Source of the DNA: Candidatus Micrarchaeota archaeon
Lineage (GTDB): Archaea; Micrarchaeota; Micrarchaeia; Norongarragalinales; Norongarragalinaceae
NCBI GenBank assembly: GCA_037444485.1
Contig: JBBIMI010000003.1
Coordinates: 1,461 to 65,460, forward strand
DNA length: 64,000 nt
Direction of reading: 5' to 3'
Positions 10,506-38,493 of the stretch are shown here, piece by piece (within the stretch, counting starts at the first letter, position 1; each line of letters opens with the position of its first letter). Under the pieces are notes generated by a model. That model saw only the letters and a list, made by a program, of their open reading frames with translations. It searched no databases and was not told the DNA's origin. Made by a program: the position numbers and the translations under genes.

Positions 10506-13500
10506 TTAAACGCGTTTCGCGTACTTTAACCTAACCAACGCGATGCTTGCAGCAAGCGCGGCGAGCATTGCGAGAAACGCTAACAACTCGCGCGGCCAGC
10601 TTGGCAGCGCGAGCGGACTTACGCCCCCGCCTGCAGTCGTAGTCGGCGCTGGTGGAGCGAAAAAGTTGTCTTGCGGCACGCCGCGAACGTTGCCAGCTGC
10701 GTCGCCGCTGAAAGCGATTCCTTTTTGCGCGAATTCAGGCGACAACGGAATGTCTTGACCGTTGTAAACGTTTATCGCGCCAGTAGTTGGATTGAATGTT
10801 AGAATTCCGTTCTGTCCGCGCGCAGCAAGCAACGGCAAGAATTCGCTTAAGCCGTCTGGCCCCTTTGCTTCAACCCAAGGCCCGCCGTCTGGGCCCTGCT
10901 TGAAACCGAAAACAAAGTTGCCTTTATCTGTTGGCACTACGAGATTGCCGTTCGCATCACGGTACGGCTCGCCAGTAATTCTGTAGTCCGTCGCTTGACC
11001 TGTTTTCTTGTCAATCACGCGTAGAATCGGGTTTCCCTGCGCGTCTTTCGTGAAAGCGTAAATGTGGTCTTTCGTCTCGAAAGACTGTATTCCGCCAGCG
11101 CCTTGAATTTGTTGAAGTGCTTGCTGTAAGCCGGACTCCATCCCGGTTTTTTCAGTAATGCTTAACTTCGGCGTGGTAGAACCATCCGCATTCTTCGCAG
11201 TTCCAACAACCCCGAAATCCTTGATTGCTTGCACGCCAGAAGCAGACAATACGTAAACAAACAAGTACAAGCGTTTGTTAACAGTGTCGAACTCGATTTT
11301 GCCTTGACTGCCTATAATAGTCTTAAGAAACCCTATTTCTTGGCCGCTCACGCTGCTGCCAGTAGGCCCACTCAAAAACACGCGTCCATCGCTAGAAACC
11401 TGTAACGTGGAGCCCAGCAACTGCGTTTGCTGGAGGGTGTTCTTGTCATCAATGCTTGGCGCGTTGACTTCAGTTCCAATCTTTCCGCTTGTCGAGGAAA
11501 CGCGCGTGAAACTAATTTCGTTGCCTGAAATTGAAGTGACGCCTTTGTCTGTGACTACGGTTGAAACCCTTCCCAAGAATGGCGTCAAATCGTCGCTTAC
11601 AATCCGCTTCGTTAAAGCACTCAACTGTTGTTTCAAGCAATCAATCGCGTTACAACTAGTCGCGAAAGAAATCCTGCCGTCGTACAAGATGTTTAACAAC
11701 GTTCCAGCGCAGCCGGCAATGTTTGCTTCAAACAACTTGTTCGGTAGAATAACACGGCCGTTCTCTTGCGTCATCAAGCGCGCGAGCGCGCGCAACTTCC
11801 AATCGTCTGAATCGAATTTTTGCAGGGTGTTTCCGTTCTTGTCGTAAAACGCTATTCCGTCAGTTGCGCTCAAACGCACTGCTTTGTCGTTAGACAAGTA
11901 GTTTTCTGCAAACGGACAACCCTTACCTGCAAGCTGGTCGAATAGTCCGCCTTTCGCTGAAAAAACGCTTTTCTCGATTTGCAGGTAGTAAAGCGCTTCA
12001 GGCTGCACGAAGCCTTTTTGGTCTTTCAAACCAGCTTTGAAATTCAAGATTTCAGTCATTTTAGAAAGCGGGTTTTCCTTTTGTTGGAACGCTTGTTGAG
12101 CTGCAGTCCCGATTCCCAACTGGCTTAAAACGTCTGTAACTGGCTGGAGTTTTTCAGCAACGCCTGAAACTTTTTTCTTGACCGCTTCAGGCAGCTTTTG
12201 GTAAGTCAAAACCTTGTATTCCGGGTCGGCGCAGGAACTAACGTACTGCTGTGCTTTAGAACCGAAATACCATTGGAAAGCGAAAGGCGTTTGAATGTTG
12301 TTAATAAAATTCAGGGTCCCGATTGGGGCCTTAACCCAAGCTGACTGCGCCAACGCTATTTTCTTGAATAACGACAACGAAGGCAACACCATGAGAGCCC
12401 AACCTGCAATCGTGGAAGCGGCGTACCCTGTTTTAAAGTGGGCTAACGTCGCTTTATCGCATTCTTGTCCTTTATACATGTACGGGTCGAACGAAACGAT
12501 GTAATCGTTTACCAGCAGAAACGTCGTTATTCCGAGAATGCTGGGTGCACCTACTGTTTGAGCCACGCCCCTCGCGAAAATAAATTGCGGAATTAGAGTC
12601 AAGACGTAAGAATAAAGTATTGCCTGGTTTTTAGTGTTCACAACCACGTTCGGAAAAGTGTTGTAGAGCTTGAACTGCAGGCTCGTGTACTTATCGTTTT
12701 CCGAAAAGCTGGAAACGTCCTCGAAGTTGGTCGCGTAAGAATCGCCGCGCCAACTAGTCTTGATTTTAATGTTGTCTGCTGTGCTGATGCTGGTAAAAGA
12801 ATTGCTTGAATCGATGCCTTTAGGGTTATTAATCAAGAAAACTTTTCCGGCGGAAAACGCCTTCGACGGCGCTGAAAAACTGGTTCCGAAAGTGTTTGCA
12901 ACAGATTCCAAAAGCCGACCGGTGCCGAACAAATCGCTTGCCTTCCTAAACTTGCCAGCGATTTCCGGGTGATTCACGTAAAGCTTGGCGAACGAATCTT
13001 TCGCTGGAGTAGAACCCTTTAAACTAAAGAAAACGCGGTCATTAATGGAATACAAAATCCTCGCTGGCCCGAGCCAAGTCGCACCCAAAATCAAGCCCAA
13101 ATAAACGCGCCTGCCCGCGTATTTGGCGATGTCGGCGTAAGCGTCAGCGCGCTTTTTCAGCAATTTAGTCTCAGCTTCAAGTTTTTTAACCGGGTCTTCA
13201 ACGCTTTTATAAGCCTGCATGCTGCGCGCGACTTGGCCGACTTCCGTCTGGAATTCTGCAGGAATCGCTCTGCCAACGTTGCCAGTAACTCCAAAAAGCT
13301 CGTCCAACTCTTCTCCAGTCAAGTAAAGGTTTCCTACCGCGAGCTTATCCCTGACTTTCTTTGCAGACTCACTACCAAGCCTGTTCGTGACCTCTCTCGT
13401 AAATTGAATGTCCAACGGATTCACTCCAGTTGGGTTAGTTCTAAGCAAGTTTTCCAGATCCCTGTACGACTGACTCGTTTCACTGAAAAACTGTGCCGCC

Positions 13501-14609
13501 CTAGTTCCTTGAGCTTGGGAAGCCCTCAACTCGCTGAGTTCTGCTTTTGCCGCAGCCAATTCTTCAGAAGCAGCCCTCCCAAAGTGAAGCGAACCTACTG
13601 CGAGAATAGTGCTAACCAAGAGATCGTACTTGTTCCAAGTGCTTGAATACGAAACCCAATCCTCGTAGAAAGAAGGAATCAGCATGTTTGCTCCGTTCGC
13701 ACCCAAATTCATGAAGCCAGTGACTTCGCTTCCAACCAAGTGTTGTTCTGAATCAAGTTGGTCAACTTCTTCACCGGAAGCTGACGAAACGAATTTTCCT
13801 TCCTGGCATTGTTTTGAAGTGCTGCTGCAATAATTCAAGTCTTTGTCTAACAACACAGCGTAAGTTACTCGCCCTTGAATGTTTTCGTTGTCTAAAGCGC
13901 ATTGTTTGGGATTCATTTCTTGCGCTTTCAGCAAGTCGCACAAGCTTGCTTCGTTTCGCCCCGGGGTTCCGCCCGCCACAACGATTTTCAAGTCCCTGCA
14001 TTTTCCAGGCTTTTCTTCAGGCGCTATTCCTGTAACTCTGCCTGGAAGTAAACCCATTTTTTGTAGTTGTTCGACAACAAAGTTTTTCGGTTTGCCGACT
14101 TGTTGAGCGTATTTTTCAGCGACGCTTACTGGAATGCTCGCAGTAGTCTTCACGCGTCCTTTGTCGTCGAAGTACTTGTCCAAGCAAGGCTTTACTTCTT
14201 CAGCCTTCAAGCTTTGACAATACTCTCTCAAACGCAAGTCTTTAGCTGCTTGTTGTTCGCTCACGCCGAGGATTCCGGCGACTTGAATCAAACTAATTTC
14301 TTCACCGCCGATTACAGCGCCCTGCACCGAAGGCGGAAAACGGTGTTTTCCCGCGTCCTGCATGTTCTTCAACGCTTCAGCAAACGGCAAGAAATTTATT
14401 TCGTTAGGCGAAAAACCCAGCGTGTTCGCCCACAACGATTGCACTTCCTGCGGAGTCATTTCAGAAACTCTACAGAAAACGCTGGCTTGAAGCGAAACCG
14501 CTTGCTGCGCTGAAGCTGGTTGAACTGGTTGAGCGAAACCGTAAGGAGCGAAGAGTTCCAGGAAAAGCAAAACCCCTGTTGTAAAGGCGAAAAACTTGAG
14601 TTTCTGCAT
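10506..14609 (-). CDS. giant (1367 aa) secreted/membrane-anchored cell-surface protein, hypothetical
   Basis: N-terminal signal peptide MQKLKFFAFTTGVLLFLELFAPYGFAQP; several internal hydrophobic segments; C-terminal TM anchor LLAFLAMLAALAASIALV followed by basic tail RLKYAKRV; no enzymatic motif recognised. Confidence 0.7.
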   Translation of the reverse strand: MQKLKFFAFTTGVLLFLELFAPYGFAQPVQPASAQQAVSLQASVFCRVSEMTPQEVQSLWANTLGFSPNEINFLPFAEALKNMQDAGKHRFPPSVQGAVIGGEEISLIQVAGILGVSEQQAAKDLRLREYCQSLKAEEVKPCLDKYFDDKGRVKTTASIPVSVAEKYAQQVGKPKNFVVEQLQKMGLLPGRVTGIAPEEKPGKCRDLKIVVAGGTPGRNEASLCDLLKAQEMNPKQCALDNENIQGRVTYAVLLDKDLNYCSSTSKQCQEGKFVSSASGEEVDQLDSEQHLVGSEVTGFMNLGANGANMLIPSFYEDWVSYSSTWNKYDLLVSTILAVGSLHFGRAASEELAAAKAELSELRASQAQGTRAAQFFSETSQSYRDLENLLRTNPTGVNPLDIQFTREVTNRLGSESAKKVRDKLAVGNLYLTGEELDELFGVTGNVGRAIPAEFQTEVGQVARSMQAYKSVEDPVKKLEAETKLLKKRADAYADIAKYAGRRVYLGLILGATWLGPARILYSINDRVFFSLKGSTPAKDSFAKLYVNHPEIAGKFRKASDLFGTGRLLESVANTFGTSFSAPSKAFSAGKVFLINNPKGIDSSNSFTSISTADNIKIKTSWRGDSYATNFEDVSSFSENDKYTSLQFKLYNTFPNVVVNTKNQAILYSYVLTLIPQFIFARGVAQTVGAPSILGITTFLLVNDYIVSFDPYMYKGQECDKATLAHFKTGYAASTIAGWALMVLPSLSLFKKIALAQSAWVKAPIGTLNFINNIQTPFAFQWYFGSKAQQYVSSCADPEYKVLTYQKLPEAVKKKVSGVAEKLQPVTDVLSQLGIGTAAQQAFQQKENPLSKMTEILNFKAGLKDQKGFVQPEALYYLQIEKSVFSAKGGLFDQLAGKGCPFAENYLSNDKAVRLSATDGIAFYDKNGNTLQKFDSDDWKLRALARLMTQENGRVILPNKLFEANIAGCAGTLLNILYDGRISFATSCNAIDCLKQQLSALTKRIVSDDLTPFLGRVSTVVTDKGVTSISGNEISFTRVSSTSGKIGTEVNAPSIDDKNTLQQTQLLGSTLQVSSDGRVFLSGPTGSSVSGQEIGFLKTIIGSQGKIEFDTVNKRLYLFVYVLSASGVQAIKDFGVVGTAKNADGSTTPKLSITEKTGMESGLQQALQQIQGAGGIQSFETKDHIYAFTKDAQGNPILRVIDKKTGQATDYRITGEPYRDANGNLVVPTDKGNFVFGFKQGPDGGPWVEAKGPDGLSEFLPLLAARGQNGILTFNPTTGAINVYNGQDIPLSPEFAQKGIAFSGDAAGNVRGVPQDNFFAPPAPTTTAGGGVSPLALPSWPRELLAFLAMLAALAASIALVRLKYAKRV

Positions 14610-14657: not shown

Positions 14658-14720
14658 TTAACTTCGGTTAAACTTCGGTTTAACTCTAGTTTAACTTCAG
14701 TCGATTTGGTTTAACTTTAG
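14658..14720 (+). promoter_or_regulatory. array of ~6 TTAACT(TCGG) direct repeats at ~11-bp spacing in promoter region of giant surface protein gene
   Basis: ttaacttcggttaaacttcggtttaactctagtttaacttcagtcgatttggtttaactttag read directly; lies between gene start (14609) and upstream gene end. Confidence 0.5.
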
Positions 14721-20546: not shown

Positions 20547-20637
20547 CCGCCATTCCTCTCTGTGCTCTTTCAACAAACCCACCCAATCCCTTTTAGGTGG
20601 GAAGTTTTAAAATATTGTGGGAAAATATAACTGGGGA

Positions 20638-20757
20638 TTCACGCGAGTTCGAGGAAAACGCTTTCGCCTTGCTTCGACAAAGCGAGAGCAGTCGCACCCG
20701 TCTGCGTCAAAGCCGCATTCAAATCACTTAAAGACAACCTGCTTACTTCAACAACCA
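20638..20757 (-). CDS. micro-ORF, 39 aa (MVVEVSRLSLSDLNAALTQTGATALALSKQGESVFLELA), hypothetical
   Basis: Hand-translated; below ORF-track size cutoff; preceded 15 nt upstream by another micro-ORF with GAGG motifs between. Confidence 0.25.
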
Positions 20758-20772
20758 TTTTCCTCAACCTCA

Positions 20773-20895
20773 ATTAAAGATTAAAGTCGTAGTGCAAGCC
20801 GACGTCGCAATTCAAGCAAAACCCTTCCGCAGTAACGCACCCGCGCGTGAAAACGCGCCCGCAATCCCTGCAAACCATTTCTCCAACTACTATCA
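20773..20895 (-). CDS. micro-ORF, 40 aa zinc-ribbon-like protein (MIVVGEMVCRDCGRVFTRGCVTAEGFCLNCDVGLHYDFNL)
   Basis: Hand-translated; CxxC...C...CxxC cysteine spacing; A/T-rich promoter-like sequence upstream. Confidence 0.3.
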
Positions 20896-20932
20896 TTCTT
20901 TTCGAATTTTTGGATTTTTGAAACCCTTGGGC

Positions 20933-20959
20933 CGGCAGCGCGCGTTAGGCGCGCGCTGC
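20933..20959. other. perfect GC-rich hairpin (GG)CAGCGCGCG-ttagg-CGCGCGCTG(CT)
   Basis: 9-11 bp stem read directly; lies 3' of Lrp gene and 5' of micro-ORF pair; same CAGCGCGCG..CGCGCGC palindrome core recurs in the duplicated 198-bp element. Confidence 0.6.
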
Positions 20960-21096
20960 TGAACTGGATTTCGCAAGACGGTTTATAAGCGGTTTTGCAA
21001 CACCAGCCTGCCGGTGAAATTTTCTTTAGAGGGAGAAAACGCCGTTCACCGGCAGAATACGGGAAGCGCGGTTGGTTTGCGGTTTTTGCGTGAAAG

Positions 21097-21495
21097 TCAG
21101 AGTTCTTCCTTGACTGTGGTGAAGCAGGCGAGAGTGAGCGTTCTCGCGACTCCGGGCAGCGCGCGCAGCTTGTCGATTACGAGTTCCCCGATTTCCTGCA
21201 TCGAAGCGCCGCGCACTTTCAACAGCAAGTCCCACTCACCAGTTATTATGTGCGTTTCGAAAACCCCGGGCAGCAACGAGATTTTGCAGGCGAGCTCGCG
21301 CTGGGAAACAGGGCCTTGGGCGTAAGCGACGAGGATAAAGGCGGTGGACGGTCGCCCAAGCTTTCCGTAGTCAGGCGCTACGGTGAAAAGCTTGATCACA
21401 CCACCTTTCTTCAGCTTGCGAATTCTCTCGTGGACTGTAACGCGGGGAATCCGCGTTTTCTTTGCTATTTCGGTGGTGGTAGCACGAGCAAGCAA
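21097..21495 (-). CDS. Lrp/AsnC family transcriptional regulator
   Basis: 132 aa; N-terminal HTH (TTEIAKKTRIPRVTVHERIRKL), C-terminal RAM domain (FILVAYAQG...THIITGEWDLLLKVR). Confidence 0.85.
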   Translation of the reverse strand: MLARATTTEIAKKTRIPRVTVHERIRKLKKGGVIKLFTVAPDYGKLGRPSTAFILVAYAQGPVSQRELACKISLLPGVFETHIITGEWDLLLKVRGASMQEIGELVIDKLRALPGVARTLTLACFTTVKEEL

Positions 21496-21514
21496 AGAAC
21501 ACGTTTTCAGCCTG

Positions 21515-22039
21515 ATGGAAGACTTTCTGGCGGGAGCGGTAAAGTACGTGAAAAAGGAGTGCCGAGAAGAGCTGAGTGCATTTGGCCGCGAGCTACGCGA
21601 TGTGAAGACGCCTTTCGCTAAGTTTACGACTCACGAGCTGGAAGAAAAGTACGGAAGCTGCTGGGAAGACGCCGCGTCGAGAGAAGTTGAACAGCCGTTT
21701 TGGGCTTTGTGTCACAAGCGCGAGTTTTACGACAAGGAAGACCCGCACGCGCCAGGGCATTACTTGAACTACGACTTGATCTACCCTGAAGGCTTTGGAG
21801 AAGGGCTTTCAGGCGCGGAACGCGAACACGATTACAAAACGATAATCAACAAAATACAAAAAACCGGCTTGAATGAAGCTCACTACGAGCCTTACTTGAA
21901 AACGGCGGAAAAAGGACTTGTCGCTTCCGCCGGAGGCGGCTTCGGAGTCGAACGCTTGGTGCGATTCCTCGCGGGTGCAAAGCACGTCGGCGACGTGCAG
22001 CTGTTCAGGCGGGTTCCGGGAGAAAAAATCGCGGTGTAA
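21515..22039 (+). pseudogene. class IIb aaRS-like fragment (AsnA / AspRS-AsnRS catalytic-core C-terminal ~175 aa only)
   Basis: Ends ...NYDLIYPEGFGEGLSGAEREH...GLVASAGGGFGVERLVRFLAGAKHVGDVQLFRRVP = class II motif 3 region; N-terminal two thirds of an AsnA/AspRS core absent (upstream DNA encodes Lrp on opposite strand). Confidence 0.45.
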
Positions 22040-22045: not shown

Positions 22046-23479
22046 CTAGAGAGACTGCAGGACGCGCTTGAGTTGTTGAACCGTTCCTTCGACGACGCGG
22101 GCGGAGAATTCTTTCTTGAAGCGCATTGCGCTCGCGCGCTCGTGCCCGCCGCCGCTTTCGATTGCGTGCGGCATTTCTTCCTGCAGGCGCAAAATAAAGT
22201 CGTTGGCTTTAAAGCCGAGCGCGTGCGCGCTTTCGCTCACGCGGAAGCTCGCTGAATCTTCGGTATACCCGAAAGTCACGAGAGGCTTTGCATAACGCGC
22301 TTCACCATCGTCGTGAAGCACGTTCACGCACTTGGCTTTCTGCGGAAAAACGCTTTTCTTCACGAAGCCCGAAAGCTTGATGACTTGAATCAGCGCCTTG
22401 CCCGCTTCGACGACGCGGGTCGCCTTGCGAGCGGCGTCGCGCATTTGCTTCAAACGCGCGGTTGCTTTCTTGAATGCGAACTCGCGTTTGTCCGCGTCGA
22501 AAAAGTCTTCATAAACTTTATTCAAATCGATTTTGCCCGAAGAAAAAAATTCGAGCGCGAGCGCCTCGTCAACGCCGCGCCCGCGCGGGGCGAAGCGCGA
22601 GTGGTCTGCGTGCATGGAAGCGAACGCGAGGAGTTCAAGCTGTTTTTCTTCCGAAGCCGGTGCGGCTCGGCGCGCGATTTCGCAGGAAAGCAGTCCAGAA
22701 TTGTAGTCCGAATTCCCAGCGTTAGCGCTTAACGCGAATGGGGAAACAAACAAGTCAACCGAATTTTTTAAATCTTTTGCAGGCGGGTGGTGGTCTACTA
22801 CGATTACGCGCATTGCACTGTGCGCCTGCGAAACGAGGGGAGCGCTTTCCTCGTTGCTCGCGTGGTCCGCAATTATGAGAAGCGGCTTTTTTTCGGGATA
22901 GCCTTGCGCCCATTCGAAGTCGGCAAGCAGGTCGCGTTCTTCATAAAAGTAGGAATCCGCGCTTGAACGAAAAAAATTTTTGTGGAAAGGAATGCCTTTC
23001 AGCGTTGCTAGCGAGAAAACCGCGCGGCGGAACGCCAACGCGGATGCTGTGCCATCCGCATCGTCGTGAAAGCGAATTGTAAGCGGCGTGAGCGTTAACA
23101 CGCTTTCAGCGATTTCGCGCGCTGCTCTCGCGAAGAGCGGTTCAAGTTTTCTGGAAACCGCGTCGTCGACGAAGGGTTTAACTTTGCGGGGCGTAGAGTT
23201 TTTCTCGAGCCACGCGCGCACGCTTTTCTCGACTTCTTTGCCAGCTGGTTGAATTGATTCAGCTTCTATAACGCGTTGCCCGCGTTCTTCAACAACACTT
23301 CCTTCAACTGCGATTGCCTTGCCGACCGCGTAATCCGTCTGCACCGCGAATTGCTTGACTAGAAAGTATTGAAAGTATTCGCCTTGTAGGGAAAGCAGTG
23401 AGTAAGACGGGTTTGAGCCAAGCGTTTTTGCGATTATGACGCCTTCAAGTTTCATGAAGTTCTTCATAAAGTGTTTCAC
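22046..23479 (-). CDS. DHH-superfamily phosphoesterase (RecJ-like/NrnA-like) with N-terminal OB-fold-like region
   Basis: IIADHASN and VVDHHPP (DHH motifs), SGGGHERASAMRF (DHHA1 GGGH motif), 477 aa. Confidence 0.75.
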   Translation of the reverse strand: MKHFMKNFMKLEGVIIAKTLGSNPSYSLLSLQGEYFQYFLVKQFAVQTDYAVGKAIAVEGSVVEERGQRVIEAESIQPAGKEVEKSVRAWLEKNSTPRKVKPFVDDAVSRKLEPLFARAAREIAESVLTLTPLTIRFHDDADGTASALAFRRAVFSLATLKGIPFHKNFFRSSADSYFYEERDLLADFEWAQGYPEKKPLLIIADHASNEESAPLVSQAHSAMRVIVVDHHPPAKDLKNSVDLFVSPFALSANAGNSDYNSGLLSCEIARRAAPASEEKQLELLAFASMHADHSRFAPRGRGVDEALALEFFSSGKIDLNKVYEDFFDADKREFAFKKATARLKQMRDAARKATRVVEAGKALIQVIKLSGFVKKSVFPQKAKCVNVLHDDGEARYAKPLVTFGYTEDSASFRVSESAHALGFKANDFILRLQEEMPHAIESGGGHERASAMRFKKEFSARVVEGTVQQLKRVLQSL

Positions 23480-23515
23480 GAAGTAATAGTTTGCGTAAAC
23501 CAGAATTTTAATTAA

Positions 23516-23569
23516 AGCGTTTCAACCCGTTTCAACCCATTTCAACCTGTTTCAACCCATTTCAACTGC
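23516..23569 (+). promoter_or_regulatory. five tandem 10-bp repeats (G/A)TTTCAACC(C/T) in divergent promoter region
   Basis: gcgtttcaacccgtttcaacccatttcaacctgtttcaacccatttcaactgcg between DHH gene (minus) and trm1 (plus). Confidence 0.6.
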
Positions 23570-23609
23570 GCAGCGTTAACCTTATTTTAATCACTTTCAT
23601 AATTTCTTC

Positions 23610-24773
23610 ATGCCGCTTAAAACAATTCTTGCAAGCGAAGGCAAAGCACGCCTGCTGATTCCAGCGCTAGCGGCAAAAAATCCTTTCCACCAGTCCGCCT
23701 TCTTCAACCCGCGCATGAGTTTTAACCGCTCCCTATCCGCCCTCGCATTCGCAGCTGCTTTTCACTCCGGATACCGCGTCGGGGATGCAGTAGTTTGCGA
23801 CGGGTTATGCGGAGTTGGCGCAAGAGGAATACGTTACGCGCTCGAAGGCGAGGGCGTAAAAAAAATTTTTTTCGTGGATGCGAATCCAACCGCAATCCAA
23901 CTCGCGAAAAAAAACGTTGCATTGAATGGCTTGAAGAAAAAAAGCAAGGTTGTTAAACAAGACCTCAACGCTTTCTTCCTCCAACACCAAAACGAGTTCG
24001 ACTTCATTGAAGTAGACGCGTTCGGCTCGCCCACGCCTTTCCTCGAAAACTCTTTCCGCGGCCTCAAACACTCAGCGATTCTCTCCGTGACAGCAACCGA
24101 CCTCGCTACGAGCGGCGGAAGCAAACCACTGCCGGCAAGAAGACGTTACGACGCGCATCCCTTGCGCTGCGAGTACTCGCATGAAATCGCTGCGCGCATT
24201 CTAGTCGGACGAATAACGCGCACTGCCGCGAGTTTAGACTTCGGAGTAAAACCCCTAGCGACGTTCTACAAAGAACACTTCGTGAAAACGCTTGTTTTCT
24301 GCGAGAAAAGCGCAGAGAAAGCGAATGCGAGCCTTTCATCCCTCGGCTTCGTGAGCCACTGCTTCTCGTGCTTGAACCGCGTCACCGCAAAGAACGCGCA
24401 AGAAAAGTGCGGAGAGTGCGGCGCGTTGTTCCAGCACGCAGGCCCGTTATGGATTTCGCGCGCGAGCGACGCGGTTTTTTTAGACGCGTTGCTTTCGCTA
24501 GCACGCAAAGCAGATTACTTGAAGGAAAAAGAACGAGGCGAACTCGTAAAATTCGTGGAACTACTCGTTGAAGAAAACGACTCGCCGCCAACATTCTTCG
24601 ACTTGCACGCGTTAAGCAAGAAACTGCGCATAGAGTGCCCGAAGAAAAGCGAGGTTGTTCGCGCGCTCGCAGCGCGCGGTTTCCACGTCACTGAAACACA
24701 TTACGCGGGCACGGCAATCAAGACGAACGCGAGCGCGAGAACGCTAAGCGAAGTCCTACTTTCACTGGTTTGA
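23610..24773 (+). CDS. trm1: tRNA (guanine26-N2)-dimethyltransferase Trm1
   Basis: 387 aa; FDFIEVDAFGSPTPFL (DPFGSP-type motif), Cys cluster CFSC...CGECG; overall Trm1 architecture. Confidence 0.85.
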   Translation: MPLKTILASEGKARLLIPALAAKNPFHQSAFFNPRMSFNRSLSALAFAAAFHSGYRVGDAVVCDGLCGVGARGIRYALEGEGVKKIFFVDANPTAIQLAKKNVALNGLKKKSKVVKQDLNAFFLQHQNEFDFIEVDAFGSPTPFLENSFRGLKHSAILSVTATDLATSGGSKPLPARRRYDAHPLRCEYSHEIAARILVGRITRTAASLDFGVKPLATFYKEHFVKTLVFCEKSAEKANASLSSLGFVSHCFSCLNRVTAKNAQEKCGECGALFQHAGPLWISRASDAVFLDALLSLARKADYLKEKERGELVKFVELLVEENDSPPTFFDLHALSKKLRIECPKKSEVVRALAARGFHVTETHYAGTAIKTNASARTLSEVLLSLV

Positions 24774-25483: not shown

Positions 25484-25557
25484 GAGTGAAACAATTAAGT
25501 AAAACAATTAAGTGAAATCAAGTAAATAAAAATTGAGTAAAACAATTAAGTGAAATA
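25484..25557 (+). promoter_or_regulatory. tandem direct repeats aacaattaagt(g/a)aaa (3-4 copies) in divergent promoter region
   Basis: gtgaaacaattaagtaaaacaattaagtgaaatcaagtaaataaaaattgagtaaaacaattaagtgaaataacg between JAMM gene and tyrS. Confidence 0.55.
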
Positions 25558-25576: not shown

Positions 25577-26650
25577 GTGGATTTAGAGGAAAAAATAGAG
25601 CTCGCCAAACGCCCGCCGACCGAGGAAATAGTTGTCGAAAACGAGTTGCGCGAGTTATTCGAAACGAATTCAAAGCCGAAACACTACATTGGTTTTGAAG
25701 TAAGCGGCTTGCTGCACGTCGGAACCCTCATTCAAAGCGGTTTCAAGATTCGCGACTTACAGAAGGCAGGCGTTCAATGCACGATTTTTCTCGCTGACTG
25801 GCACAGCGTCATCAACAACAAGCTAGGCGGCGATTGGAACGCCATAAAACAAGCAGCGAAATACTATGCTGAAGCATTCAAGTTTTTTTGTCAAGGCGCG
25901 GAAATCGTTCTCGGAAGCAGCTTGTACGAAAAAACGCTTGACTACTGGGCTGACGTAGTGCGTTTTTCTAAAAACGTTACGCTCGCACGCGACGTGCGTT
26001 GCTTGACGATAATGGGGCGCAGTGAAAGCGACAAGCTCGACTTGGCGCAGTACTTTTACCCTCCAATGCAGGCTGTCGACATTCACGCGCTTGACGTCGA
26101 CATCGCGCACGCGGGAATGGATCAACGCAAGGTGCACATGCTCGCACGCGAAGTCTTTCCGAAACTAGGGTGGAAGCCGTTTGTCGCGCTCCACCACAGC
26201 CTCCTGCCAGGCTTGGCTGAACAGCCTAAAACGCAAGCGCCTGAAAAACGAGGGCAAGTAGTCGCGATGAAAATGAGTAAAAGCAAGCCTTGGACCGCAG
26301 TTTTTGTTCACGACTCGAAGAAAGAAATTGAGGACAAGCTCGCGAAAGCGTACTGCCCCCAGCGCATTACCGAAAACAATCCTGTTCTCGAGTTCGCGCG
26401 GCAACTGGTTTTCCACGAGTTCAAAGAACTACGCGTCGAGCGTCCAACAAAATTCGGCGGCGACGTTGATTACGCTTCCTTCGCGGAATTGCAGAAAGAT
26501 TTTGTTGAAGGTAAACTGCACCCGATGGACTTGAAGAAAGCAGTTGCAGGCTCGCTCGACAAGATAATCGCGCCGGTTCGCGCGCACTTCGAAAAACCGG
26601 AATTCAAGAAGCTGCTTGAAGTATACAAGAACGTTGAAATAACGCGTTAA
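25577..26650 (+). CDS. tyrS: tyrosyl-tRNA synthetase (archaeal type)
   Basis: Close match in pattern to M. jannaschii TyrRS: HYIGFEVSG, QRKVHMLAREV, KMSKSKP, KAYCP, NPVLEFARQLVF, ERPTKFGGDVDY, KLHPMDLKKAVA. Confidence 0.9.
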   Translation: MDLEEKIELAKRPPTEEIVVENELRELFETNSKPKHYIGFEVSGLLHVGTLIQSGFKIRDLQKAGVQCTIFLADWHSVINNKLGGDWNAIKQAAKYYAEAFKFFCQGAEIVLGSSLYEKTLDYWADVVRFSKNVTLARDVRCLTIMGRSESDKLDLAQYFYPPMQAVDIHALDVDIAHAGMDQRKVHMLAREVFPKLGWKPFVALHHSLLPGLAEQPKTQAPEKRGQVVAMKMSKSKPWTAVFVHDSKKEIEDKLAKAYCPQRITENNPVLEFARQLVFHEFKELRVERPTKFGGDVDYASFAELQKDFVEGKLHPMDLKKAVAGSLDKIIAPVRAHFEKPEFKKLLEVYKNVEITR

Positions 26651-26750
26651 AAACGTTGAAGAATGCATTAAAAACTTTGAAATAACGCGTTAAAACACGT
26701 AATAAAAATAAACGCGTAAAGAAAGCTTGCCGTCAAACCCCAAAACATTT

Positions 26751-26790
26751 AATTCCCTCAAAAACGTTTAAATTCCCTCAAAAACGTTTA
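26751..26790 (+). repeat. 2 x 20-bp direct repeat aattccctcaaaaacgttta
   Basis: read directly in 680-bp non-coding interval downstream of tyrS. Confidence 0.7.
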
Positions 26791-27327
26791 ACCACCGAAA
26801 ACTATTTAGTTTAAACTATTTAATTTAGCATGATTCATAGTTTACAGCGCGGTTTGCGGTGATCGCTTGCATTAACTCGTCACGCAACACTCGTCTTGTT
26901 TGCGGTTAAAGTGCTTCTACAGTACTTCGCTGGCTTTCAACTATTTTCAACTGCGTTGGAAAGCAAGTAACTGAAATAATTGAAACTCCCGCAAACATTT
27001 TCAAGAGACTTTACGCAATTGCTTACGCGTGCAGACAATTCTTTGCTAGCGCAAGCGAAGCAAAACAAGTTTATTCAAAACACGCCATCCGACACGGAAT
27101 AGGATGCGGAACAAAAGCGCAGAACGTGGGCGTAAACGAATCGGTGAAATAAAGTTGTTTAAGCAGACACTCGAAGTAGAGACAATGAAAGACTGAATTA
27201 AGGCTCTCGAGGAGGCGAGGACGTAGGAGGAAGCGAGGACCTACGAGAAGGCTAAAACCTACTCGGTTTAGGAGACGGTAGAGAGGGAAACGGCATGGAA
27301 GGCTTTGAAGATGGGGGAGGGAACAAG

Positions 27328-27591
27328 TCACCCGGTTACGCACGTCGAGCCGTCAGCGCTGCACGTGGCGCCTGGAGGGCAAACGTCGTCAGGACAAGAA
27401 GAACAATTAAAGTAACCTGGCTCGAGGCACTTCGTCAAATTACTGATTTGCTGTGATTTGTTCGCGATTTCTTTTTCTTGTGGTGCGAAAATATTGCTTC
27501 GCAACAGCAAAATTATTAGGATTACTAAAAGAATTCCGGTGCTGATCAACACCAAGTACTCGAAAACCGCTTGACCTCTTCGCTCACGCAT
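27328..27591 (-). CDS. archaeal type IV pilin with class III signal peptide
   Basis: MRERRGQ|AVFEYLVLISTGILLVILIILLL: short basic leader, RG-Q cleavage motif, hydrophobic stretch; Cys-rich C-terminal domain. Confidence 0.6.
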   Translation of the reverse strand: MRERRGQAVFEYLVLISTGILLVILIILLLRSNIFAPQEKEIANKSQQISNLTKCLEPGYFNCSSCPDDVCPPGATCSADGSTCVTG

Positions 27592-27601
27592 CTCGCATTC
27601 C

Positions 27602-28665: not shown

Positions 28666-28716
28666 AAAAATTATTCACCGTCTTGCCATATTCACTGCCT
28701 TACCATATTCACTGCC

Positions 28717-29826
28717 TTACCAAGCTGCTGGCTCCATCTGCTTCGTAATGTATAGTATTATCACCATTCCGAATGCGATTCCGCCGAACGCCAAATAAAT
28801 AAAGTACGCCGGCAAGCCGGCTGCGAATAACGGAATCTGGAGAATTGCTGAAATGATTGTTGCCGCTACTGGCGCGACCACCGCAACCATTATGAAGAGA
28901 ATGTTCACGAAATTCAGTTTTTCCGTAAAATCGCGGATTTTCATGCGTGTTTCGAAACTAACGTCTTGCGCGATGTCGTTAATAATGTCACTCAAACTCC
29001 CGCCAGTCTTAATGGAACGCACGATTTGCGTTACAGCTCGCTTCAAGCTCTTCGAACGCGTCCTGCGCGCCAAACGCGTTAACGCTTCCTCGGTGCTTAA
29101 ACCCCGTTCTAAATCGCTTAAAAGTTTCTCGAACTCGTAACTCAACACTCCGTAACCAGCGCCAGCAACTGAAACAATTGCCTTGTGGAACGTTACTCCA
29201 GCGCGCACTTGAGTAGAAATCTGTCGCAACGCGAACGGCAGCGCGCGGTCAATCTTTAACGCCCTCGAGTTCGCTTTCGCAACAAGCAAGAAAAACGACG
29301 AAAACGCGACGAAAAACAAGACGATGAATGCCGCGAGCGGCGCAAGCGCTGCAAAAAGCGAGTCGTTCAACGCGAGCGCTAGAGCGCCGAACGCGATGAA
29401 AACCATTATTCCCGCGAGGAACGCAGTCGCACTTGACGCGATGAGGAAAGCTTCAACACTCATGTTTACGCCCGCGCTTTCAAGCAAGTCCCTCAACTCG
29501 CGTGACGCCGGCATCTTCGACAAGAAAACAGCTAACGCATCAATGGGGGCGTGCAGCAACGCGTAAAAACCGCGCATGAACGCAGGCAGTCCAGTAAGCT
29601 GCTTGCTGGATTCGAATGCTTTTTCGCTTTCCGCAGCGCCAGCTTCACGTTTTCGAAAAACTAGTGTTTCAGTCTTTAACTGTGGTGCGACTGCAGGCGT
29701 CCTGCTTTTAAGTCTCGACACTATTTCAGAAACCTTTATTTGAGGCGCTTCTTCTTCAAAGCTTTTCTTTTTTTCAATGAATTCCTTGATTTTCTTTAAG
29801 CGGTCCAGTTTCTCTTTCTCAGGCAA
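28717..29826 (-). CDS. type II secretion system F-domain membrane protein (TadB/TadC/FlaJ-like), second copy
   Basis: 369 aa; ...SLKRAVTQIVRSIKTGGSLSDIINDIA... typical T2SSF cytoplasmic domain; TM blocks. Confidence 0.65.
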   Translation of the reverse strand: MPEKEKLDRLKKIKEFIEKKKSFEEEAPQIKVSEIVSRLKSRTPAVAPQLKTETLVFRKREAGAAESEKAFESSKQLTGLPAFMRGFYALLHAPIDALAVFLSKMPASRELRDLLESAGVNMSVEAFLIASSATAFLAGIMVFIAFGALALALNDSLFAALAPLAAFIVLFFVAFSSFFLLVAKANSRALKIDRALPFALRQISTQVRAGVTFHKAIVSVAGAGYGVLSYEFEKLLSDLERGLSTEEALTRLARRTRSKSLKRAVTQIVRSIKTGGSLSDIINDIAQDVSFETRMKIRDFTEKLNFVNILFIMVAVVAPVAATIISAILQIPLFAAGLPAYFIYLAFGGIAFGMVIILYITKQMEPAAW

Positions 29827-31540: not shown

Positions 31541-31650
31541 ACGCCAACAACAAAACAAAACAAAAAAAACAAAACAAACAACGAAACAAAACAAAACAAA
31601 ACAAACAACGAAACAAAACAAACAACGAAAAAACAATGAACCCGAGAGAT
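31541..31650 (+). repeat. CA-rich low-complexity tract (caaaacaaaacaaacaacgaaa units) ending with cccgagagattcgacaa
   Basis: read directly upstream of secretion ATPase gene start; shares terminal motif with 9990-10040 tract. Confidence 0.7.
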
Positions 31651-31710: not shown

Positions 31711-32763
31711 TTAACTTGAAACTGCGAGCGTGACGGGAATCCGAAACGTCTTGCAGGGCGTCACTATAGTCAACTGTCCGACGAGCGATTCGCTTACTGA
31801 CTCCGGCACATTGATTGACAACGCCAAAAAGTTTTTCTCGCCCGGCTTGATTGGCGACTCGTCCTCGAAACGCGCTTGCCCGATTGCAGCAATGTCTCCG
31901 GCGAGCGAAACGTCGGCATTAGAAATCGCGACTTCCCCCGCTTTTCCAGCGTTTTCGAAAGAAATAATTTCCTTGAACGACTCTCCGCGCTTAACGCTTG
32001 CGGAAATGCTTTCAGGCGAAACACGCAAGTCAGGCGGCGTGACTGCGCTTGCAGCTAGTGGAACGCTCTTGCGCGTGAACTTTATGCGCGCGCTCCCAGT
32101 TTTCTGACCGACTTCACCTTGCGGGAATAAGACTGTCGCCTCAACTGTTTCACGCGCGCTTGACTCTATAATCGTTTTCTTTGACGCGAGGGTTTTGAAA
32201 GCGCCTTCGCCGACGAGCTCGACTTCAACTGCGTTGACGCCGTTGTTGACTACGTCGAAAAAAAGTTTTTGCGGGCACGAGGCTGGAATCACTTGCGGCG
32301 CGCTTTTGACGCTCAAGTCGACGTCGAGGTTGCGCTCTAATTCCAGCGTCCTGCTCGCTTCCTCGCCCGACTCTAGGAAAACGGAATCTATTTTTTTCTT
32401 GAAGGCGTCTCCAGCGTCGACTTCAATGCTTAAGCTCGCTTTCGACGGCAAGCTTGAAAAAACCACTATGCCGGCCTCGTTAGAGTAATCAGTGTTGATT
32501 AAAGAACCGTCTGGCGCGAGCACCGAAACTTGCGCGCCTGCAACAGCGTTTCCGGAATCGAGTTCACGCAACGAGAGCGAGAGCGACGCAGGCCTTGGAA
32601 TAAGAAAAAAGAGCGCAAGAATGATTGCGATTACTGCTGTGGCCACGCCTATTTTCAGTAAACCAATTTTTTTTACTGCCGGCTTTACAGCTTCAATTAA
32701 CGCAGTAAAGCGGTCTCTAACATCGTTTAAAACCGACGGTTTTTCGAAGTATTCCTCTTCCAT
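31711..32763 (-). CDS. membrane-anchored hypothetical protein with large extracytoplasmic domain (pilus-locus associated)
   Basis: 350 aa; single N-proximal TM (IGVATAVIAIILALFFLI), Ser/Val-rich beta-rich remainder; heads the pilus gene cluster. Confidence 0.5.
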   Translation of the reverse strand: MEEEYFEKPSVLNDVRDRFTALIEAVKPAVKKIGLLKIGVATAVIAIILALFFLIPRPASLSLSLRELDSGNAVAGAQVSVLAPDGSLINTDYSNEAGIVVFSSLPSKASLSIEVDAGDAFKKKIDSVFLESGEEASRTLELERNLDVDLSVKSAPQVIPASCPQKLFFDVVNNGVNAVEVELVGEGAFKTLASKKTIIESSARETVEATVLFPQGEVGQKTGSARIKFTRKSVPLAASAVTPPDLRVSPESISASVKRGESFKEIISFENAGKAGEVAISNADVSLAGDIAAIGQARFEDESPIKPGEKNFLALSINVPESVSESLVGQLTIVTPCKTFRIPVTLAVSS

Positions 32764-32948
32764 CCCAAAAAACCTTTTGAAAACCTTTTGTTGCCGAAAA
32801 ATAAAGGTTGTTAAAAAAAAATAAGGTTGCGCGCGCTTAAAAAACCGTTCTTTTTCTTCAGCCTTTAATCCCCGTTTATCCCACTCGTCCCCGTTTTTCT
32901 TGTTCTCCTTATTTTTTCTTCAAGAATTTTTTTCAATTTTTTCTCCAA

Positions 32949-34823
32949 TCAAGTTTTTTCTTCAAGAATTTTTTTTAATTCTTCAGCATCCACCCGCAGC
33001 CTGTGCTCGCGCATTACTAGTTCGAACGCGTTCGGCTTGCCGCGAAAGCCGGCTGCCAAAGCCTCCAACGCTCGTCCTGAAACGCGCCGCAAGTTTTTCT
33101 CTGCAATCACTTTCTCCACGCTCTCGCTGGGCGCAAAGCAAAGCGCTTTCAATAGTTCAGGGACAGCCGCGCGCGTGATTTCGCCTGACGCGAAAGCGTC
33201 GAAAACGCTTTTCAAAACATTTTCGTCGAGCGCGCGCGTGCCGCAACCTCCGCGTTTGAGCGCGACGAGCGTTTCCAAGAGCGTGAATGCGATGAACCGC
33301 GCGTTTTTTTCTCCTGCGCGCGTGCCTGCAACGAGTTTTTCGAACAACTGTTTTTGCGGTGACGCCAGCATTCTATTGGCGAGTTCAAAATTTAATCCCA
33401 ACTTTAACAACCGCTTCCGCTCGTCCGCTAAGGAAACTGTTTTTATTTCAGAAAAAAGTTTTTTGTCAACGCGCGTCGGCACAACGTCGGTCTCAGGATA
33501 CATTCGCGCCGCGCCTGGCAGCGGACGCATGAAAACGCTTGCTTCACCTTCCGCGCGCCGAGTTTCCTCGGGAACACGTTCACGCAACAATCTCGCGCGC
33601 GACAACACAGCGTTCAACGCGGTTACAGCAACGCGTTTTTCGCCTGCGACGAGCGCCCACGCGTCGCCGGCAGTGCAGGCGGTGGCTTGCGAGACGAGCG
33701 CGTACTCGCGCGAGAGCGCGTACTTCGCTGGGTCTTCGTCGCTGTGAATCAAGCCGCGCGTTCCACTAGCTGCTCGCGCGTAGTCGGCGAGTTCGCTGCC
33801 AAGCGTTTTTCCAGGAAAAAGCTCTCGTTCAAGCAACCCGTGTAGTCCGTCTAAGCGAACCGCGAGGACGACGCCGCCTCGTGAAATTGTTTGTTTTAAA
33901 AACTTGTTTTCAGTCTTCGCGAAAACTCGAGTGACGTCAACAATTTTTTTTTCAGCGTTTTTTCCAGCGAACGCGGGCTTGCGTGACAACTGCTTGCACA
34001 ACTCTAATAGTGAAAGCTGGCGGCGCACTTCGTTCTCAATTATTTTCGGAATGTTTTTTAGTTCTTGAACACCTTTGATTTCGACGCGCGCGCCTTGAGC
34101 GATGGAAACATTCAAGTCTTGGCGTATAGAGCCAATGCCGCGCTGCATTCCACCCGTGTTGCGTAACACGAGGCCGATTGTTTCAGCTGTTTCGCGCGCG
34201 TGCTCACCATCTTGAAGAGAAGCGTCCGTAGCGATTTCCACGAGCGGGATTCCTTGGCGGTCGAGACGGTACACGACTTCACCTTCACGTTGTTCTACTA
34301 TTCCAGCGCTTTCTTCTTCAAGAGAAATCGTTTGCACGCCAACCTGGCCGCGCGTTGTTTCAATAAAACCGTTCACTCCGACGAGCGCTGTTCGCTGAAA
34401 ACCGCTGACTGCACTCCCGTCAACTATGGTTTTACGCATTACGTGAATCTCGTCTACTGGAGTCGCGTTAAGCGCTTTAGTCACGGTGAGCGCAACTGCA
34501 AGCGCTTGAGCGTTTAAAGAGTGCGGTGGTTCTTCGTCTAACTCGACCAGACAACTCGAGTCTCGGGGCGCTAGGTAGACGAACCTCGTTTTTTTCCCAG
34601 CTTCGAAAGCTGCGGCCGGGTCTACAGCGCCGAGTTCGCCGACGACCGGGCGCAGGAAACGCGTGACGCGAACGCACTCGCGCTCGTTTAACTCGTTCAT
34701 CCACTCTTCATGCTCGCCTGCAGTTTCGCTGGGATTCGCGTAACAGCCGCAGAAGAGTTTTTTCGAGTCGATGCGTTGATGGATTTCTATGCCTGCCTTG
34801 AAGCCGAAGCGAGAGTAGTCCAT
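32949..34823 (-). CDS. gatE: glutamyl-tRNA(Gln) amidotransferase subunit E
   Basis: 624 aa; MDYSRFGFKAGIEIHQRI...CGC N-terminus and overall GatE architecture. Confidence 0.9.
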   Translation of the reverse strand: MDYSRFGFKAGIEIHQRIDSKKLFCGCYANPSETAGEHEEWMNELNERECVRVTRFLRPVVGELGAVDPAAAFEAGKKTRFVYLAPRDSSCLVELDEEPPHSLNAQALAVALTVTKALNATPVDEIHVMRKTIVDGSAVSGFQRTALVGVNGFIETTRGQVGVQTISLEEESAGIVEQREGEVVYRLDRQGIPLVEIATDASLQDGEHARETAETIGLVLRNTGGMQRGIGSIRQDLNVSIAQGARVEIKGVQELKNIPKIIENEVRRQLSLLELCKQLSRKPAFAGKNAEKKIVDVTRVFAKTENKFLKQTISRGGVVLAVRLDGLHGLLERELFPGKTLGSELADYARAASGTRGLIHSDEDPAKYALSREYALVSQATACTAGDAWALVAGEKRVAVTALNAVLSRARLLRERVPEETRRAEGEASVFMRPLPGAARMYPETDVVPTRVDKKLFSEIKTVSLADERKRLLKLGLNFELANRMLASPQKQLFEKLVAGTRAGEKNARFIAFTLLETLVALKRGGCGTRALDENVLKSVFDAFASGEITRAAVPELLKALCFAPSESVEKVIAEKNLRRVSGRALEALAAGFRGKPNAFELVMREHRLRVDAEELKKILEEKT

Positions 34824-34878
34824 GAAAGAAAATACGTTAAACTAGTTAATAACTTGTCGATTTAACTAGTCGATTCGC

Positions 34879-34918
34879 AAGGATTCTCAGGATTCTCGGG
34901 GATTGGCAGGGATTCGCG
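34879..34918 (+). promoter_or_regulatory. four tandem 10-bp repeats GGATT(C/G)(T/G)C between ftsY end and gatE start
   Basis: aaggattctcaggattctcggggattggcagggattcgcgag. Confidence 0.5.
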
Positions 34919-38437: not shown

Positions 38438-38493
38438 TTAAGACACCTTTCCTTTGCTTTCCCTTCTCCGCTTCCTTTTCCTTATAATTTGTT

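Follow-up and report, generated by a model that had tools for sequence, protein, structure and literature searches.

Private tandem-repeat arrays in the spacers of a Micrarchaeota genome: most likely the litter of local tandem duplication rather than regulatory sites

Are the short tandem arrays that lie between the genes of a Micrarchaeota archaeon built for the regulation of those genes, or are they left behind by a mutational process? This question is raised by a five-copy array that separates a DHH/RecJ-like gene from Trm1 in a stretch of 64,000 nucleotides (nt) of Candidatus Micrarchaeota archaeon (GenBank assembly GCA_037444485.1, contig JBBIMI010000003.1, positions 1,461 to 65,460), hereafter the window. 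The compactness of prokaryotic genomes is thought to be due to deletions outnumbering insertions, and DPANN archaea are a textbook case of streamlining. An original prediction, made from the letters of this DNA, held that almost every intergenic gap carries its own tandem direct repeat, and it named transcription-factor binding and replication slippage as possible reasons. In this study, the core of that observation is confirmed, as private tandem arrays occur in the window far above chance. The arrays are most likely mutational litter and not regulation; with a probability of roughly 0.8, we consider them to be the accumulated products of a pervasive, ongoing and lineage-specific local tandem duplication, which were neither built nor kept for function.

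The focal array was placed by Tandem Repeats Finder (TRF) at 23518-23566 as 4.9 copies of CGTTTCAACC, and a 20-mer repeated 2.3 times with 96% identity is the better description. It sits in the divergent gap between the DHH/RecJ-like gene (22046-23467, minus strand) and Trm1 (23610-24773, plus strand), and between the core promoters of these two genes. The core promoter of Trm1, a TFB recognition element (BRE)/TATA-like sequence (CGTTAACCTTATTTTAATC, 23574-23592, plus strand) about 20-35 nt before the ATG, lies outside the array and sets its downstream limit. At the same site a relative of 86% identity (L002) harbors a single copy (GCATTTCAAGCC, AAAGCATTTCAAGCCCAGCGTTAACC) against five in the window, and the BRE/TATA-like element (CGTTAACCTTATTTTAA) is kept in the window, in L002 and in a further relative (L003), whereas the sequence upstream of it is not. 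The focal unit was not over-represented elsewhere, with 5 extra matches against 4.8 expected. A second, degenerate array of three 12-mers (GTTTCATGAAGT, 23449-23484) lies at the start of the DHH/RecJ-like gene, where it makes an in-frame insertion of 24-25 nt in comparison with L002 and adds 4-8 codons or a short leader. The product of this gene is a DHH/DHHA1 protein, which we take to belong to the family of archaeal RecJ/GAN-Cdc45 nucleases that process Okazaki fragments. That a gene of this kind, with an altered N-terminus or leader, lies beside the focal array is probably a coincidence, and would be relevant if a replication-linked mutator were sought.

The genes of the window were mapped with a codon log-odds model trained on long open reading frames (ORFs) and corrected with the gene calls of Logan contigs, and the curated map consists of 65 coding sequences (CDS), two to three tRNAs and about 8.2-8.5 kb of intergenic DNA, with a GC content of 50% for coding and 38% for intergenic sequence. 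The genes are those of an archaeon (Trm1, an Ogt-like DNA-binding protein, TyrRS/TrpRS, SMC, GatD/GatE, FtsY, Elp3, Cdc6/Orc1 and prefoldin), and ribosomal proteins and intron-containing tRNAs are likewise encoded. An array was called at a TRF score of at least 40 and a period of at least 7, and the expectation was drawn from 100 shuffles in which each gene or gap was treated separately and dinucleotides were preserved inside 50-nt blocks. With this composition-matched test, which applies to the window the TRF check that the original prediction had proposed for the whole genome, 39 intergenic arrays were observed against 7.5 expected (shuffle maximum 13), and 21 coding arrays against 5.0 (shuffle maximum 11), which is an excess of about four-fold. 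Among gaps of at least 40 nt, 26 of 45 harbor an array against 6.5 expected (shuffle maximum 11); local direct repeats take up 24.6% of the intergenic bases and 6.2% in the shuffles; and exact two-copy duplications with a period of at least 9 number about 27-31 in the 64 kb, against about 0.3 expected from 4^-p. Per base, the spacers are about ten-fold richer in arrays than the CDS, at about 4-5 arrays per kb of spacer. All nine arrays that had been listed beforehand are present, some exact and some degenerate, and the strong excess stands; the share of gaps with an array, however, is 58-62% and not almost every one.

Though the arrays are numerous, they do not form a family. When 60 units were compared all against all, a single match between loci was obtained (GCGCGCGAAAC), and it is explained by a separate dispersed element of 190 nt. 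The units are direct repeats and not palindromes, their lengths cover a broad spectrum of 9-35 nt, mostly in 2-3 copies, and many arrays are 100% identical between copies. It was therefore rightly perceived that each locus has its own unit and that neither one dispersed family nor a CRISPR (clustered regularly interspaced short palindromic repeats) array is present, since the units differ per locus and the copies stand head-to-tail without spacers. A CRISPR array shares with these loci the direct repeats in archaeal non-coding DNA; it was rejected, as there are no unique spacers, the units are too short and variable and differ per locus, and no cas genes were seen in the window. A dispersed family similar to mycobacterial interspersed repetitive units (MIRUs), repetitive extragenic palindromes or miniature inverted-repeat transposable elements (MITEs) was rejected as well, with no shared unit except through the 190-nt element.

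The position of the arrays does not point to promoters. Their density was 5.5 per kb in 5'/3' gaps, 3.7 in 5'/5', 4.0 in 3'/5' and 3.7 in 3'/3' gaps, four of the seven convergent gaps harbor arrays, and further arrays are found in a tRNA intron and in frame within CDS, so the specificity for upstream regions that had been proposed was not borne out. The helical periodicity of about 10-11 bp fared no better, as 9 of the 31 intergenic periods fall on 10-11, 20-22 or 31-33, which equals the 0.30 expected from a flat distribution. In contrast, reading frame is a strong divider: periods divisible by 3 make up 16 of 18 in CDS and 10 of 31 in intergenic DNA (Fisher p = 2.4e-4), and the same was observed in the array-rich relative L112 (15 of 17 versus 4 of 18, p = 1.3e-4). 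This is the signature of a process that strikes everywhere and is followed by purifying selection on the reading frame. Housekeeping genes (Trm1, GatD/E, Elp3, FtsY, prefoldin) and tRNAs are affected alike, and surface genes are not enriched.

The bases of the arrays are 28% GC and are skewed between the strands. On the plus strand, the intergenic arrays hold 852 A against 440 T, while outside the arrays the figures are 2033 and 1884. Of the 17 arrays with a strong skew, 13 carry their excess of A on the plus strand, despite the placement of 49 of the 65 genes on the minus strand, and the cumulative GC skew drops almost monotonically through the window. The A-skew may reflect a replication-strand bias of the duplication or slippage process.

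For the comparison with relatives, a reference-genome scan with the window Trm1 gave no close relative, the best match among GTDB representatives having 47% identity, and a metagenome scan with Elp3 gave only relatives of at most 49% identity, which served as a comparison panel and not as orthologs. Exact-sequence look-ups of near homologs then supplied an ortholog set of six loci from five other metagenomes or metagenome-assembled genomes (MAGs), collinear with the window and with 76-86% protein identity; the homologs of the window Trm1, GatE and GatD are labelled Candidatus Micrarchaeota or Norongarragalinales by their sources. Additionally, an independent Logan assembly of run SRR11582170 (L001) matched 13.6 kb of the window with 1 mismatch and 0 indels, and a Logan contig of the same sample (L116) was reached through P0205, the cluster representative of the window GatD.

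Comparison of the orthologous gaps, another of the proposed checks, revealed that copy number differs between relatives, and at four non-coding sites and one coding site a compact relative holds one copy where the window holds 2-5. Besides the focal site, upstream of Elp3 a relative (L114, from assembly GCA_964355585.1) has a single copy of a 19-mer (ATTTCCTACGGCCAAAAG) against 2.2 in the window (43675-43739). Downstream of GatE, the 51-nt gap of L113 aligns with the 185-nt gap of the window, in which only an 11-mer doublet and one more TATA-like copy are additional, and the gap reaches 524 nt in another ortholog; in the window, the exact doublet (32769-32790) lies between the TATA box and the ATG of the gene at 31711-32763, with the extra TATA-like copy further upstream. 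Inside GatE, an in-frame 12-nt doublet (33946-33969, minus strand) forms an insertion of four amino acids (FAGK) that is missing from both relatives aligned, in-frame 12-mer arrays in L112 make an insertion of about 40 amino acids, and the GatE lengths in the window and two relatives are 612, 624 and 674 amino acids. The gap aligned with L114 at 49.7 kb gave no informative alignment.

Where relatives also have arrays, these are different ones. Between Elp3 and GatD, L114 has a spacer of 63 nt, the window one of 220 nt and L115 one of about 500 nt, and the array-rich versions have no array sequence in common. The FtsY-to-GatE gap, of 97 nt in the window, contains a 174-amino-acid ORF in L113 and consists of 470 nt of other arrays in L112, while the position between GatD and Cdc6/Orc1 is taken by two genes in the compact L114 and by 443 nt of other arrays in L115. 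Within the syntenic regions, 31% of the intergenic bases are alignable to any relative against 93% of the coding bases; among the 19 intergenic arrays there, only 4 fall within sequence that can be aligned, one of them being the focal site, where the relative is single-copy. Relatives that retain these genes together with their core promoter lack the arrays. The one-copy orthologs, the poor alignability and the unrelated arrays of the relatives together indicate that the arrays are derived, private and short-lived.

The compact relatives also carry five extra genes (a Cupin_2 gene and four ORFs without domains), whose places are taken by spacer alone in the window and in the array-rich relatives (L114 3505-4228 and 5473-6680; L113 2874-3398). 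Remnants of these genes (Cupin_2; ORFs of 94, 219, 180 and 174 amino acids) were not found in the expanded gaps by tblastn, a negative that speaks neither for nor against a colonisation of decaying genes by arrays.

The array load is restricted to certain lineages. The panel, assembled by searches with Trm1 and Elp3, comprises about 105 loci from archaea (1.7 Mb in total), and among its loci of at least 10 kb the maxima were 2.1 exact duplications and 2.4 arrays of TRF score at least 50 per 10 kb, with most loci at 0; the low values include at least 12 other Micrarchaeota loci. The window, on the other hand, recorded 4.2 and 5.6, respectively. Within the clade, arrays of TRF score at least 50 per 10 kb range from 20.9 in L112 (GC 0.41, 26% non-coding), 18.6 in L003 (GC 0.42) and 13.0 in L115 (GC 0.47), through 5.6 in the window (GC 0.49, about 13% non-coding), down to 1.8 in L113 and 0 in L114 (both GC 0.52, 5% non-coding) and 0 in L002 (GC 0.56). 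The load thus tracks the non-coding fraction (26% to 5%) and GC (0.41 to 0.56), and the GC trend arises because the arrays are A-skewed and poor in GC. The compact relatives (L113, L114 and L002), with about 5% non-coding DNA, share 80-86% protein identity with the window. GC at third codon positions (GC3) is 0.61-0.72 in array-poor and 0.52-0.59 in array-rich lineages. Three-taxon branch lengths gave a mixed picture of whether array-rich lineages evolve faster, the L002 branch being short and that of L114 the longest in GatD. The same habit was observed in relatives assembled from four other metagenomes.

With reference to the mechanism, the option of replication-slippage products agrees best with our data, in the sense that the arrays are products of local tandem duplication with one unit in the compact relatives. 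A stretch of about 9-35 bp would be copied head-to-tail without flanking microhomology, and once two copies exist, slippage or unequal exchange would add or remove copies in register, after which point mutations would blur them. The in-register change of copies is suggested by the 20-mer higher-order period of a 10-mer array, and by a difference between two assemblies of one sample, in which L116 is 85 nt shorter, in repeat register, within the largest array of the window, that of the Elp3-to-GatD gap (45291-45428). This difference, together with the perfect identity of many arrays, also argues that the process is ongoing. Selection would then act as a filter on a process that strikes everywhere: spacers and the tRNA intron would tolerate anything, genes would retain only in-frame events at tolerant positions, and core promoter elements would be spared, or duplicated rather than disrupted. 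On balance, insertions would prevail, and the AT-rich, A-skewed non-coding DNA of this lineage and of some of its sisters would grow, with other sisters remaining compact. As a cause, we infer that duplications arise at a raised rate, and/or that the deletion bias has been lost or selection for compactness has weakened in a symbiont of small population size.

The junctions bear on the initiating step. In 15 perfect two-copy duplications the mean extra match was 0.93 nt, against 0.92 nt in simulated blunt duplications, and microhomology as a requirement was rejected on these figures. For this small sample, the result makes it less likely that the first step is classical slipped-strand mispairing of short repeats already present; that step might instead be the re-priming of a nascent strand a few turns back, the ligation of an unprocessed flap, or the fill-in and rejoining of a staggered break. 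More tentatively, and with more doubt than belief, some lineages of the clade might be in a tandem-duplication mutator state, in which a specific change of replication or repair would yield blunt head-to-tail duplications of 9-35 bp at a high rate; candidates would be Okazaki processing (Fen1, RNase HII, GAN/RecJ), a primase-polymerase or end-joining activity, and accessory factors of clamp or polymerase.

Functional explanations have to be weighed against this. Each array could be a set of transcription-factor sites for the adjacent gene, for instance of the Lrp/AsnC type that binds repeated boxes, and it is true that many arrays lie 0-90 nt from start codons, that the focal array stands between divergent core promoters, and that an AsnC-family gene is encoded nearby (21097-21399). 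However, about 40 distinct units in 64 kb would need more regulators than a DPANN genome of about 1 Mb can encode, no motif recurs across promoters and the focal unit is at chance frequency elsewhere, convergent gaps without promoters have the same density (the intron and CDS harbor arrays as well), and the orthologous promoters that keep their genes and the BRE/TATA element lack the arrays, which are direct repeats without helical phasing. Because the units are private, and neither conserved nor dispersed, we regard binding arrays as very improbable. Copy-number changes could also switch or tune the neighbouring genes, as in contingency (phase-variation) loci useful to a DPANN cell attached to its host. 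One copy-number difference in register between two assemblies of one sample, the arrays that alter the TATA-ATG spacing or duplicate TATA-like or Shine-Dalgarno-like segments, and the array before a giant putative surface protein would all fit, but 2-3 copies of 10-35-nt units are far from the classical many copies of 1-9 nt, surface genes are not preferred over housekeeping genes and tRNAs, convergent gaps and the intron are affected equally, and 13.6 kb of a second assembly showed no copy-number difference at 7 or more arrays. This, too, is improbable.

A sequencing or assembly artefact, from chimeric reads or mis-joined k-mers, is hardly credible. The MAG was built from short reads, the length of one array is not the same in two assemblies, and in L112 a run of N stands within an array region (about 12160-12180); nevertheless, the arrays are mostly below 100 nt and so shorter than a read, the independent assembler reproduced 13.6 kb with a single mismatch and no indel, the habit recurs across four other metagenomes and assemblers, and the frame filter in CDS is a biological signature. 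A closer competitor supposes no special mutational process: duplications would arise at the ordinary rate, and with deletion bias or selection for compactness lost through drift, the debris would persist. The correlation of array load with non-coding fraction and with lower GC and GC3 is as expected when selection is relaxed and mutation is AT-biased, and the study of Portiera was likewise unable to separate mutation from selection (PMC3673631). Exact young duplications, though, are 10-fold denser here than in other archaea, and persistence alone would enrich old, decayed copies and not perfect ones; the roughly four-fold excess in CDS and the large in-frame arrays in proteins of relatives also speak against it. 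We consider relaxed selection by itself possible but rather unlikely, and as it overlaps with local tandem duplication and differs only in what has changed, it remains a live variant of that explanation.

Local tandem duplication without function is itself exposed to several objections. The neutrality of each individual array is an assumption, and several arrays (10076-10125, 28672-28722, 32769-32790, 36905-36955 and 49724-49758) duplicate a TATA-like tract or a Shine-Dalgarno-like segment abutting the start codon, so expression may well change in some cases. The 85-nt difference between assemblies could be a collapse by the assembler rather than a polymorphism, and the junction sample is small (n=15) and compatible with 1-2 nt of microhomology. 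That the arrays were gained, and not lost in the compact lineages, would follow by parsimony from sites with exactly one unit; the seven lineages are 76-88% identical to each other and about equally distant, and their tree gives no count of gains and losses. A Pfam search of the extra genes of the compact relatives found no DNA-metabolism domains. Again, the gene map and start codons come from a codon model, and arrays at gene edges could be misassigned. The habit that the original prediction called genome-wide holds over the whole 64-kb window; beyond it, the term is an extrapolation from these 64 kb and 2-14 kb per relative.

The closest described case is that of Candidatus Portiera aleyrodidarum, an endosymbiont of whiteflies (Sloan & Moran 2013), in which lineage BT is 69% coding with a proliferation of short intergenic tandem repeats, and its sister TV is 96% coding with few repeats; BT shows no deletion bias, is structurally heterogeneous and has lost dnaQ, mutL, ruvC and others (PMC3673631). 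The likeness extends to a reduced, host-dependent prokaryote with repeat-filled spacers next to a compact sister (here about 74-87% versus about 95% coding), to the concentration of repeats in spacers and to the mutational reading, and perhaps to an absent deletion bias and to copy-number or structural heterogeneity within a sample. Our data comprise a spacer-concentrated excess, compact repeat-poor sisters and, with a polarity given by parsimony only, derived insertions. The differences are that Portiera is a bacterium with a sharp spike of 7-bp units and coinciding gene losses, whereas this archaeon displays a broad range of 9-35 bp and mostly 2-3 copies that look like de novo duplications with blunt junctions, as seen over 64 kb. 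For yeast mitogenomes (PMC5714193), the intergenic expansion is reported to come from AT-rich short tandem or local repeats, read through drift and the indel spectrum. As far as such accounts of yeast and plant mitochondria go, close relatives differ several-fold in spacer length, as here, but these are organelle genomes with other replication and repair machinery, and the likeness is conceptual. In Sulfolobus acidocaldarius, the spontaneous mutations (pyrE spectra; PMC7785828 and work cited there) include tandem duplications as a recognised class, which shows that archaeal replication and repair regularly produce them de novo. Those are laboratory spectra from a compact crenarchaeal genome, and genome-wide accumulation is not described there.

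Among repeats that vary in copy number, bacterial minisatellites of the variable-number tandem repeat (VNTR) or MIRU type, used for multiple-locus VNTR typing, are intergenic head-to-tail arrays with units of about 10-100 bp. MIRUs, however, are one dispersed family, and VNTR loci number tens per several Mb, in contrast to the private units and the spacer density recorded here. The contingency loci of Haemophilus, Neisseria, Campylobacter and Mycoplasma have units of 1-9 nt in long tracts and are enriched at surface and restriction genes. Like the arrays of the window, they lie close to promoters or 5' ends in microbes that live with a host, and slippage alters their copy number, but the units of the window are longer, in 2-5 copies and without functional or positional enrichment. 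Our literature searches gave no report of intergenic tandem repeats in Micrarchaeota or DPANN, and the window is apparently the first archaeal case of a lineage-specific proliferation of tandem repeats in spacers.

The remaining arrays display the same variety. An exact 17-mer in 2.1 copies (6136-6171) lies in a 68-nt gap, and an exact 12-mer doublet (8431-8454) in a divergent gap. Before tRNA-Ser there are three arrays (9908-10125), a 12-mer in 3.7, a 21-mer in 2.5 and a 25-mer in 2 copies, the last of which duplicates a TATA-like tract. The tRNA-Ser(UGA) itself (10147-10330; found by ARAGORN with introns allowed and matched by Rfam as tRNA) has an unusually long intron of 111 nt that is mostly an A/G-rich tandem array (10199-10283, plus strand), and a 12-mer in 1.9 copies (10345-10367) follows directly after its 3' end in a convergent gap. 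A degenerate array of five to six units with a TTAACT core and a period of 10-12 (14658-14720) stands upstream of a protein of 1367 amino acids; this ORF (10506-14609, minus strand), earlier called a giant surface protein, has good coding statistics and no Pfam domain. A 13-mer in 5.5 copies (AGTAAAACAATTA, 25485-25555) fills a 69-nt divergent gap between a JAB gene and TyrRS/TrpRS, downstream of which three arrays with periods of 22, 20 and 14 (26630-26827) are found in a gene-poor stretch of 951 nt. Between two T2SS-F-like genes, a 17-mer occurs in three copies (28672-28722), the start-proximal of which retains a GGTGA Shine-Dalgarno-like motif. An A/C-rich 27-mer in three copies was detected at 31546-31625, and a degenerate T-rich array at 32911-32974, at the 3' end of GatE.

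Further along, the FtsY-to-GatE gap holds two adjacent arrays (34850-34918), TAACTAGTCGATT in two copies and a GGATT-core unit in four (34879-34918), and the N-terminal domain of FtsY contains in-frame arrays of a 15-mer in 3.5 and a 12-mer in 3.3 copies (35918-36072, minus strand). Three adjacent arrays with periods of 13, 12 and 25 (36313-36469) lie between FtsY and prefoldin, and an exact 17-mer in 2.2 copies (36905-36955) abuts the prefoldin ATG. Compound A/G-rich arrays with periods of 12-34 (42529-42753) occupy a divergent gap of 341 nt. The Elp3-to-GatD gap is filled by an A/C-rich 12/35-mer array, in 11.4 or 3.8 copies, and an exact 12-mer doublet (45291-45471). The 79-nt convergent gap between GatD and Cdc6/Orc1 consists almost entirely of two perfect duplications, of a 19-mer (46858-46895) and a 21-mer (46891-46932). 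Finally, an exact 17-mer doublet (49724-49758) with a degenerate third copy (together 49724-49783) abuts the ATG at 49723 of a minus-strand gene, and a 17-mer in 2.1 copies (53494-53528) lies in a convergent gap.

Several other elements were noticed. The 190-nt element is GC-rich, non-coding and present twice (48110-48314 and 53880-54090), with about 93-95% identity over about 190 nt; each copy lies in a gap of about 290 nt with an AT-rich TATA-like tract before it, and the Logan contig L116 breaks off within the element, as contigs do at repeats of several copies. The element could represent a family of small RNA genes or be MITE-like. A second non-coding block (38494-38659, in the gap 38438-38699) is 83.7% identical to L112 5513-5678, which is above its flanking genes; it includes a GC-rich near-palindrome (38547-38574) that TRF scored as a repeat, and, adjoining ribosomal-protein and Rpr2 genes, it is a structured-RNA candidate. 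When 38.4-54.2 kb were searched against Rfam at a permissive threshold, only the tRNA was recovered and neither of the two was matched, and their folds are only mildly stable (z from -1.7 to -3.5, about -2 for the 190-nt element and about -3.4 on both strands for the block). The tRNA-Ala(UGC) at 40431-40545 has an intron of 38 nt, against 62 nt in L112; default ARAGORN misses this gene and tRNA-Ser(UGA), and both are found with introns allowed or by Rfam. A weak Rfam tRNA match at 55557-55613 (plus strand; 31 bits, E = 0.017, 57 nt) lies inside a well-scoring CDS (55518-56432) and is probably a false positive.

Among the proteins, the ORF at 21515-22039 (plus strand; or 21383-22039), of 174-218 amino acids, contains only the C-terminal half of a class II aminoacyl-tRNA synthetase core of the Asp/Lys/Asn type (profile positions 133-306 of 308), and the N-terminal half was not seen nearby; it may be a split gene or a truncated pseudogene. 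The AsnC-family gene lies near it on the opposite strand, and a gene-poor stretch of 514 nt precedes it. Stretches of this kind, 0.4-0.95 kb long (26651-27601, 20583-21096, 2067-2530 and 2732-3154), have weak short ORFs and several arrays, are unusual for DPANN, and could be decayed genes or unrecognised RNA genes. The ribosomal protein L31e (37919-38437, minus strand) has 172 amino acids, of which only residues 91-160 match the Pfam domain. Its ortholog in L112 (5878-6429) bears a K/E-rich N-terminal extension of in-frame 12-mer arrays, so tandem duplications appear to build protein extensions. Public gene calls place ORFs of 32-76 amino acids without Pfam domains in the A-rich arrays of L112 (3608-4050, 12022-12322, 13602-13852) and L115 (1187-1657, 2966-3169), and these are very likely spurious.

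Such calls exemplify a hazard to annotation, as the arrays bring spurious ORFs, shifted starts and N-termini, inflated tRNA introns and misled promoter-motif discovery. At the same time, they supply sequence from which new promoters, leaders and low-complexity segments of proteins can be made. In sisters at about 80% protein identity the non-coding share runs from 5% to 26%, and the surplus visibly consists of recent local duplications, which offers a tractable archaeal case for asking whether the balance of insertion and deletion is set by mutation supply or by selection. If a specific defect of replication or repair were responsible, the blunt junctions would point to an undescribed archaeal route of tandem duplication. 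Moreover, if the mutator state were true, deletion bias would have been overridden and non-coding DNA raised from 5% to 13-26%, together with insertions into proteins, within a genus-level span of time, and these lineages would serve as an experiment of nature on how insertions enlarge an archaeal genome, with a mutational signature unlike that of classical slipped-strand mispairing.

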